The notes beneath the pieces were generated by a model, which worked only from the letters and a program-made list of their open reading frames with translations, did no database searches and was not told the DNA's origin. DNA of 273 bases from Escherichia coli (GTDB lineage Bacteria; Pseudomonadota; Gammaproteobacteria; Enterobacterales; Enterobacteriaceae), in NCBI RefSeq assembly GCF_003334405.1, contig NZ_QOWM01000073.1. One strand, written 5' to 3'. A program made the position numbers and the translations under genes. Positions 1-273 of the stretch are shown here, piece after piece; the stretch's first letter is position 1; every line of letters starts with the position of its first letter.

Positions 1-88
1 TGCGGTCCGTCTTCTCCGTCAGCCTGCCGTATTCATCGTGGCGGTAGACATAGTGCGCATCCTCCGCGATGCGGTTAACCACCCGTGC
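1..88 (-). CDS. Rhs-family YD-repeat core, downstream segment in a frame offset by one nucleotide from the upstream segment; continues beyond position 1
   Basis: Reverse-complement frame whose codons include plus 74-76 (AAC, Asn) translates to ARVVNRIAEDAHYVYRHDEYGRLTEKTDR. It is closed on its 5' side by TGA (complement of 89-91). The HDEYGRLTEKTD motif is classic Rhs core. No ATG in this frame within the window; a GTG (complement of 80-82) exists but I see no Shine-Dalgarno-like sequence upstream of it, so independent initiation is unsupported. Confidence 0.7.
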
Positions 89-228
89 TCATCATACTGC
101 CACTGCTCTGCCGGGTCGCCGTTCACCGTCCGGTGCGTGATGCGGTCCGACGCATCGTAGTGCCAGAGGGTGATAAGCCCCTCATCTTCACTCTGCGTGA
201 GTTTTCCGGTCAGGTCATAATGATAACG
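11..228 (-). repeat. Tandem YD-repeat coding units (protein-level periodic repeat of the Rhs shell), about 60 nt period
   Basis: Asp codons of the successive YD/HD dipeptides lie at reverse-complement positions 58-60, 118-120, 181-183 and 237-239 (spacings 60, 63 and 56 nt; the last is not a multiple of 3 because of the frame switch). Short DNA-level echoes of the repeat are also visible, e.g. TGCGGTCCG at 1-9 and 141-149, and GATGCGG at 68-74 and 139-145. Confidence 0.6.
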
Positions 229-273
229 TTGCGTCCGCCCGTCAAAGCCGCCCTGCTGTACCAGCCGGTCCAG
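19..273 (-). CDS. Rhs-family YD-repeat core protein, upstream (N-proximal) segment; 5' end lies beyond position 273; Rhs-like through about position 73, then 17 aberrant codons and a TGA stop (complement of 19-21)
   Basis: Reverse-complement frame starting at plus 273 is open for 84 codons and translates to LDRLVQQGGFDGRTQRYHYDLTGKLTQSEDEGLITLWHYDASDRITHRTVNGDPAEQWQYDEHGWLT, then ASRRMRTMSTATMNTAG and stop. Repeated Y/W-x-Y-D-x-x-(G/D)-(R/K)-(L/I)-T motifs at about 20-codon spacing (plus 193-228, 133-168, 73-105) are the YD-repeat signature. Paralog cannot be assigned from 273 nt. Confidence 0.8.
   Translation of the reverse strand: MDRLVQQGGFDGRTQRYHYDLTGKLTQSEDEGLITLWHYDASDRITHRTVNGDPAEQWQYDEHGWLTASRRMRTMSTATMNTAG
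73..80. other. Perfect 8-bp palindrome GGTTAACC (contains an HpaI recognition sequence GTTAAC) located exactly at the point where the Rhs reading frame switches
   Basis: Read directly: plus 73-80 = GGTTAACC, which is its own reverse complement. The last Rhs-like codon of the upstream frame (ACC, Thr, complement of 73-75) and the first Rhs-like codon of the downstream frame (AAC, Asn, complement of 74-76) overlap within it. Confidence 0.9.

Follow-up and report, generated by a model that had tools for sequence, protein, structure and literature searches.

The window, by which we mean the whole 273-base stretch of DNA analysed here, lies within an rhs core gene. A megablast search of 5,426 complete E. 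coli genomes found related sequence in 3,724 of them, nearly always on the chromosome, the median number of places per genome being 3; 422 records matched with at least 99% identity, and the matched features were named 'RHS element core protein' or 'rhsD'. Both halves of the window are 100% identical to annotated E. coli genes, of the rhsE locus as well as rhsD, with coding on the minus strand. A sequence-only reading had previously taken the window for an rhs core, and this assignment is borne out by the 100% DNA identity to annotated RHS core genes together with the profile matches described below. The same reading considered that the host could not be identified from the window; here it was mistaken, as identical E. 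coli chromosomal genes identify the host, and hence the G+C contrast between core and host becomes measurable rather than an expectation.

As the reference for mapping we used the locus of strain 720632 (L001), which has an intact RHS core gene of 4224 bases encoding a protein of 1407 aa. The gene order in L001 is ydcD - rhsE - vgrG - yncH, with two ISAs1-family copies on the ydcD side; this locus is the classical rhsE position, and the window belongs to the rhsD/rhsE subfamily. The two ISAs1-family transposase genes (an intact ISEc5 and a frameshifted one) are located directly downstream of ydcD, at 3650-6016 in L001 and at 4601-6967 in L002, the locus of strain C1 considered below, and these copies beside ydcD are the H-rpt, a classical constituent of Rhs elements.

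Against the NCBIfam model NF041261 (RHS_core, cut-off 2000), the intact L001 protein reaches 2766.9 bits. The same model is matched by both peptides of the window, the first at profile positions 669-735 with 137.8 bits (E 3.5e-40) and the second at 941-965 with 40.1 bits (E 1e-10), these fragments being too short for the whole-protein cut-off. In the first peptide, the YD-repeat model TIGR01643 is matched at residues 19-58 (18.4 bits against a cut-off of 15.8) and Pfam PF05593 (RHS_repeat) at residues 19-52 (i-E 1.3e-4), with a second, weaker repeat also present. In the intact L001 protein the Rhs-associated core domain TIGR03696 spans residues 1181-1258 and ends in PIQVIDPMGL at 1249-1258. 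This PxxxxDPxGL motif is followed by a 149-aa tip matching DUF6973 and then by ydcD, all of which belong to the parent locus and lie outside the window; strain C1 likewise keeps motif, tip and ydcD. No RNA family was found when the window was scanned on both strands against Rfam at a permissive threshold. Open reading frames on the plus strand (40 aa and 23 aa in the window, 341 aa in strain C1) were considered and set aside as unsupported antisense frames of a G+C-rich gene.

The features of the window are as follows.

1-72, minus strand: rhs core segment B, minus frame 3, NRIAEDAHYVYRHDEYGRLTEKTDR, corresponding to residues ~939-963 of the intact protein and not in the frame of segment A.
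78-273, minus strand: rhs core segment A, minus frame 1, LDRLVQQGGFDGRTQRYHYDLTGKLTQSEDEGLITLWHYDASDRITHRTVNGDPAEQWQYDEHGWLT, residues ~665-731 of the 1407-aa RhsE-type protein, with YD repeats (xYxYD signature).
73-77, no strand: deletion junction, a 5-base microhomology GGTTA common to both flanks; 622-base deletion, with L001 8078-8694 missing.
19-21, minus strand: premature stop TGA, 17 codons past the junction, after the frameshifted tail ASRRMRTMSTATMNTAG.
73-80, no strand: palindrome remnant GGTTAACC, left from GGGTGGTTAACCACCC, a 16-base perfect palindrome in the intact core, with the deletion breakpoint in its TTAA centre.
1-77, no strand: 77-mer present without mismatch in the rhsD paralog of the same genome, one k=77 assembly-graph boundary.
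197-273, no strand: 77-mer likewise present without mismatch in this rhsD paralog, the other k=77 assembly-graph boundary.

In all top matches, the 273 bases align not as one block but as two pieces spread over 895 bases. Window positions 1-77 correspond to L001 8001-8077 and positions 73-273 to L001 8695-8895, both at 100% identity, so that ~206 codons of the YD-repeat shell are lost and the RHS_core profile positions leap from 735 to 941. Due to the fact that 622 is not a multiple of three, the reading frame changes from minus frame 1 to minus frame 3 at positions 73-77 and runs into the stop codon at 19-21. Thus, what the window holds is a frameshifting deletion junction and not a continuous piece of core, a point that had been missed in the sequence-only reading; an uninterrupted reading frame through the core is absent in this allele.

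A join of this kind, located in a repeated gene, could in principle be a chimera, made from two parts of that gene during assembly or in the library, rather than a deletion allele. Several properties of the window are in line with a chimera: as a contig it is very short and has repeat k-mers at its ends, chimeric artefacts typically show short microhomologies, and the junction is missing from 5,425 of the 5,426 complete genomes and from two large collections. The one remaining genome, however, speaks for the deletion. A 56-base probe over the junction was contiguous in the chromosome NZ_CP195942.1 of strain C1 (wastewater, Panama), which holds the whole window (273/273), and the sequences flanking it are collinear with the intact locus at 99.1-99.3% identity; an identical junction within a complete chromosome, with such flanks, speaks against a chimera. 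RefSeq labels the strain C1 copy as 'frameshifted; incomplete; missing N-terminus', and a 506-aa open reading frame of this strain ends at the stop codon induced by the junction. Moreover, a protein search with the tail ASRRMRTMSTATMNTAG retrieved P0001, a 76-aa 'RHS repeat protein, partial' with the same tail, which lies on the 229-base contig NLLK01000130.1 (GCA_002228565.1), recorded in 3 samples that are possibly one clone. The junction thus also occurs in a draft assembly that was deposited separately, used another k and is reported from 3 samples. Finally, a de Bruijn unitig requires consistent read support over every k-mer of the junction. We thus regard a chimera as highly improbable, and conclude that the junction is a real, heritable deletion allele.

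This allele is rare. An exact 24-base junction pattern gave zero matches in JGI metagenome contigs and zero in GTDB species-representative genomes, from which, as from the single occurrence among complete genomes, its rarity follows. The window marks a rare pseudogenised rhsE allele, which could serve as a lineage marker.

The ends and the length of the window can be explained by assembly. Strain C1 also carries an intact rhsD (L012 20555-24835), and when its rhsE remnant is compared with this rhsD, a run of exact identity (positions 192-277 of the compared context) covers the first 77 bases of the window on one side and stops there; on the other, the two genes agree again from the microhomology onwards, over at least 277 bases. 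The last and the first shared 77-mers coincide exactly with the window ends (bases 273 and 1). The same rule at k=55 yields exactly the 229-base contig NLLK01000130.1, which is shorter than the window by exactly 22 bases on either side. The window is thus the de Bruijn path at k=77 that belongs to the deleted rhsE copy alone, in a short-read assembly of a C1-like strain. Since both ends enter sequence common to rhsD, the contig is not extendable, and since ends and length were set by the assembly, they have no biological meaning. The practical value of this observation lies in annotation, as a tiny G+C-rich contig becomes recognisable as an assembly-graph fragment of an rhs paralog.

With respect to known genes, the closest relatives of the window are E. 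coli rhsE and rhsD (RhsD-E subfamily, clade I of Jackson et al. 2009, PMC2935791), to which both halves are 100% identical at the nucleotide level. It shares with rhsE the chromosomal position beside ydcD, the ISAs1 (H-rpt) copies and vgrG, and the same mosaic of core and tip G+C content; in contrast to these genes, the window copy has lost 622 core bases and is frameshifted, and in strain C1 it is also truncated at its 5′ side by a Tn3-family insertion. In strain C1, the 5′ part of rhs together with vgrG, which lies directly upstream of rhs in intact loci, has been replaced (L002 10341-18056) by a truncated Tn3-family transposase, ISKpn26, TEM-1, a resolvase, a Tn3 transposase and an ISVsa5 fragment. 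A chromosomal beta-lactamase transposon has thus been inserted in a T6SS effector locus in this strain. The rhsE gene of K-12 is also a truncated pseudogene, through a different truncation.

Intact members of this family are PAAR-Rhs effectors of the T6SS, in which a YD-repeat shell encloses a variable C-terminal toxin; they are delivered by VgrG, and an immunity gene lies downstream. The YD-repeat cocoons of the Tc-toxin components TcB/TcC are related to these effectors. The intact parent gene of the window would, by what is established for the family, encode a PAAR-Rhs effector delivered via the adjacent VgrG and neutralised by the product of the downstream immunity gene. Judged from its sequence, this parent resembles both PAAR-Rhs effectors and TcB/TcC in having the full RHS_core, the domain ended by PxxxxDPxGL and the variable tip, with vgrG upstream; in contrast, the allele of the window has lost ~206 shell residues and is predicted to form no closed cocoon. 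The deletion of 622 bases between two GGTTA sequences removes these ~206 shell codons, shifts the frame and brings in a stop codon 17 codons further on. A rare deletion that breaks the frame in this way points to a dead gene, and the window allele is a pseudogene, predicted to be unable to act as an intact effector.

It may be argued that the deleted copy is still alive, in that its distal 472 codons (the end of the core, the DPxGL motif and the DUF6973 tip) are expressed from a GTG codon on the junction in the manner of an orphan toxin. A 472-aa open reading frame does start from this GTG (L002 7615-9033, minus strand; the GTG at 9033 corresponds to window positions 80-82), and it spans PIQVIDPMGL and the tip, with an intact ydcD behind it. 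However, the listing of this frame was purely mechanical, direct reading of the sequence shows no obvious ribosome-binding site before the GTG, the PAAR N-terminus and the vgrG needed for delivery are missing in strain C1, and NCBI annotates the whole gene as a pseudogene. Expression of an orphan-like toxin from this copy is thus quite unlikely, and we keep to the pseudogene. Taken as a whole, we are highly confident in the account of the window as a fragment of a core of the rhsD/E subfamily at the rhsE locus, of ordinary composition, carrying a 622-base deletion and with ends set by assembly at k=77.

As for the composition, a direct recount of the 273 bases (A 42, C 91, G 74, T 66) gave 165 G+C, or 60.4%, so that the earlier count of 165/273 (about 60%) was exact; in sliding windows of 60 bases the local G+C ranges from 52 to 65%. 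As the host sample we used 150 kb, consisting of three 50-kb regions of the chromosome of E. coli strain C1; this strain and strain 720632, both carrying identical sequence, serve as proxies for the host. Overall G+C of this sample was 51.5%, its 273-base windows had a mean of 51.5% (sd 5.5%), and only 1.6% of 149,184 such windows reached at least 165/273 G+C. The G+C enrichment of the window therefore exceeds chance relative to the host. Windows of 273 bases inside the intact rhs core had a mean of 64.3% (sd 2.7%, minimum 55.7%), among which the studied window stands at the 7.5th percentile, that is, on the low side for an rhs core. The claim of the sequence-only reading that rhs cores are markedly richer in G+C than their host is confirmed by these values (window 60.4%, core 63.9%, host sample 51.5%). 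It had further proposed that the window be compared with its flanks and with the variable toxin tip, and along L001 a contrast was found between core (63.9%), tip (40.9%) and flanks (~45%), as given in the following values.

Core of the intact rhsE-type gene, L001: G+C 63.9%.
Toxin tip, L001: G+C 40.9%, with 28% at third codon positions.
ydcD (immunity gene), L001: G+C 27%.
Chromosomal flanks, L001: G+C ~45%.
vgrG, L001: G+C 55.6%.

The copy in strain C1 has similar values, with 62.5% in the core remnant and 40.9% in the tip.

A comparison of codon usage, also proposed earlier, showed that synonymous choices differ sharply between core and host. G+C at codon positions 1/2/3 was 67/37/75% in the 91 in-frame codons of the window and 66/49/77% in the whole intact core, against 63/41/58% in 14 host genes. 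Relative synonymous usage in the core versus the host was 2.1 versus 0.21 for Arg CGG, 1.25 versus 0.33 for Gly GGG and 2.02 versus 0.76 for Thr ACG, and the correlation of relative synonymous codon usage was 0.62 between core and host and -0.39 between tip and host. The G+C excess of the rhs core is thus mostly synonymous and concentrated at third codon positions. These data bear directly on the possibility that the high G+C is merely a by-product of the amino acids in which YD repeats are rich (Gly, Arg, Asp, Ala and Thr), with no distinct nucleotide composition or origin behind it. Second-position G+C is indeed higher in the whole core (49%) than in host genes (41%), so protein composition contributes something. 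However, the second positions of the window itself have only 37%, the excess is largest at third positions, which are synonymous sites (core 77%, window 75%, host genes 58%), and the choices of CGG, GGG and ACG are strongly unlike those of the host. Since the excess is mainly synonymous, amino-acid composition is ruled out as the sole cause, and we give this explanation very little weight compared with a nucleotide composition that is distinct from the host. That the source organism is itself of high G+C, which would make the composition unremarkable, found no support beyond the lack of a host label on the window alone, and is practically dismissed by the 100% identical matches in E. coli chromosomes at a conserved locus, the 422 records mentioned above and the sampled host G+C of 51.5%, well below the 60% at which the sequence-only reading would have given up the contrast.

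Since the 1990s, E. coli Rhs elements have been defined by a G+C-rich core with an A+T-rich tip. The 60% G+C of the window is ordinary for rhs cores, whose composition lies ~12 points above the E. coli chromosome. The compositional finding is hence correct but already known, due to the fact that the measured pattern is the classical published rhs mosaic: a G+C-rich core with an A+T-rich core extension, as well as the subfamilies rhsABCF, rhsDE and rhsGH, are described in PMC2935791. What is added here is the identification of host and locus, the recognition of a rare deletion-junction contig of a decaying rhsE, and the explanation of its boundaries by assembly. With regard to origin, horizontal acquisition of rhs is a hypothesis of Wang, Zhao & Hill 1998, as cited in PMC2935791, and a horizontal origin of the rhs core drawn from composition likewise has the status of a hypothesis. 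PMC2935791 argues that the rhs family is ancient in Enterobacteriaceae and that some E. coli loci predate the species; the composition cannot, for this reason, be read simply as the mark of a recent import.

The position of the breakpoints suggests how the deletion may have arisen. The 4224-base gene has a single perfect palindrome of 16 bases, GGGTGGTTAACCACCC at L001 8691-8706, and the single-stranded form of this sequence folds into a hairpin whose stem has 6 bp and whose loop is TTAA (-6.9 kcal/mol, z -2.4). Of the two breakpoints of the 622-base deletion, the right one falls in this loop and the left one at a second GGTTA. The simplest account, and the most likely one from the junction sequence, is that the deletion arose where a small palindrome can form a hairpin, either by slipped mispairing or by joining through the microhomology. 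Deletions at short homologies stimulated by palindromes, through slipped mispairing, have been described for lacI and for plasmid systems. The present case is similar to those in its perfect 5-base microhomology and in having one endpoint in the loop of a hairpin with a 6-bp stem; it differs from them in that there are only two natural events with a common endpoint, known from their sequence.

The second of these events is seen in the rhsE remnant of strain FORC_081, where a putative 300-base deletion ends at L001 8697/8698 (L003 ~6348), the centre of GGGTGGTTAACCACCC. It is conceivable, but in our judgement doubtful, that GGGTGGTTAACCACCC in cores of the rhsD/E type is a recurrent deletion hot spot, with two independent endpoints at its TTAA centre; a coincidence of two endpoints does not suffice to establish one. 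If such a hot spot did exist, E. coli would regularly inactivate or remodel its rhs cores through slippage promoted by a hairpin, and the possible palindrome-centred hot spot is a small lead on the decay of repeated toxin-carrier genes.

Other candidate junctions were also inspected. The contig JANDDI010000087.1 (GCA_024717985.1; L009 1-233) has an independent, in-frame deletion of 618 bases with a 7-base microhomology, which takes out almost the same part of the core, displaced by ~40 bases, and is suggestive with regard to a hot spot; it is a short contig of 233 bases of the k=77 type, with one 77-base arm and its other end at L001 8895, like the window. P0003 (ending in ...HGWLRE, on a 251-base contig) was considered as a third junction at the palindrome and rejected, as its sequence is contiguous in ordinary rhsD and it is a normal paralog variant. 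P0004 and P0007 were likewise rejected as deletion junctions, being fragments with single-base frameshifts. In strain FORC_081, the rhsE remnant (L003 6348-7389) is a patchwork, in which the putative 300-base deletion is accompanied by a putative deletion of 372 bases (~12-base microhomology), and a putative larger deletion of ~3 kb takes out the 5′ core together with vgrG.
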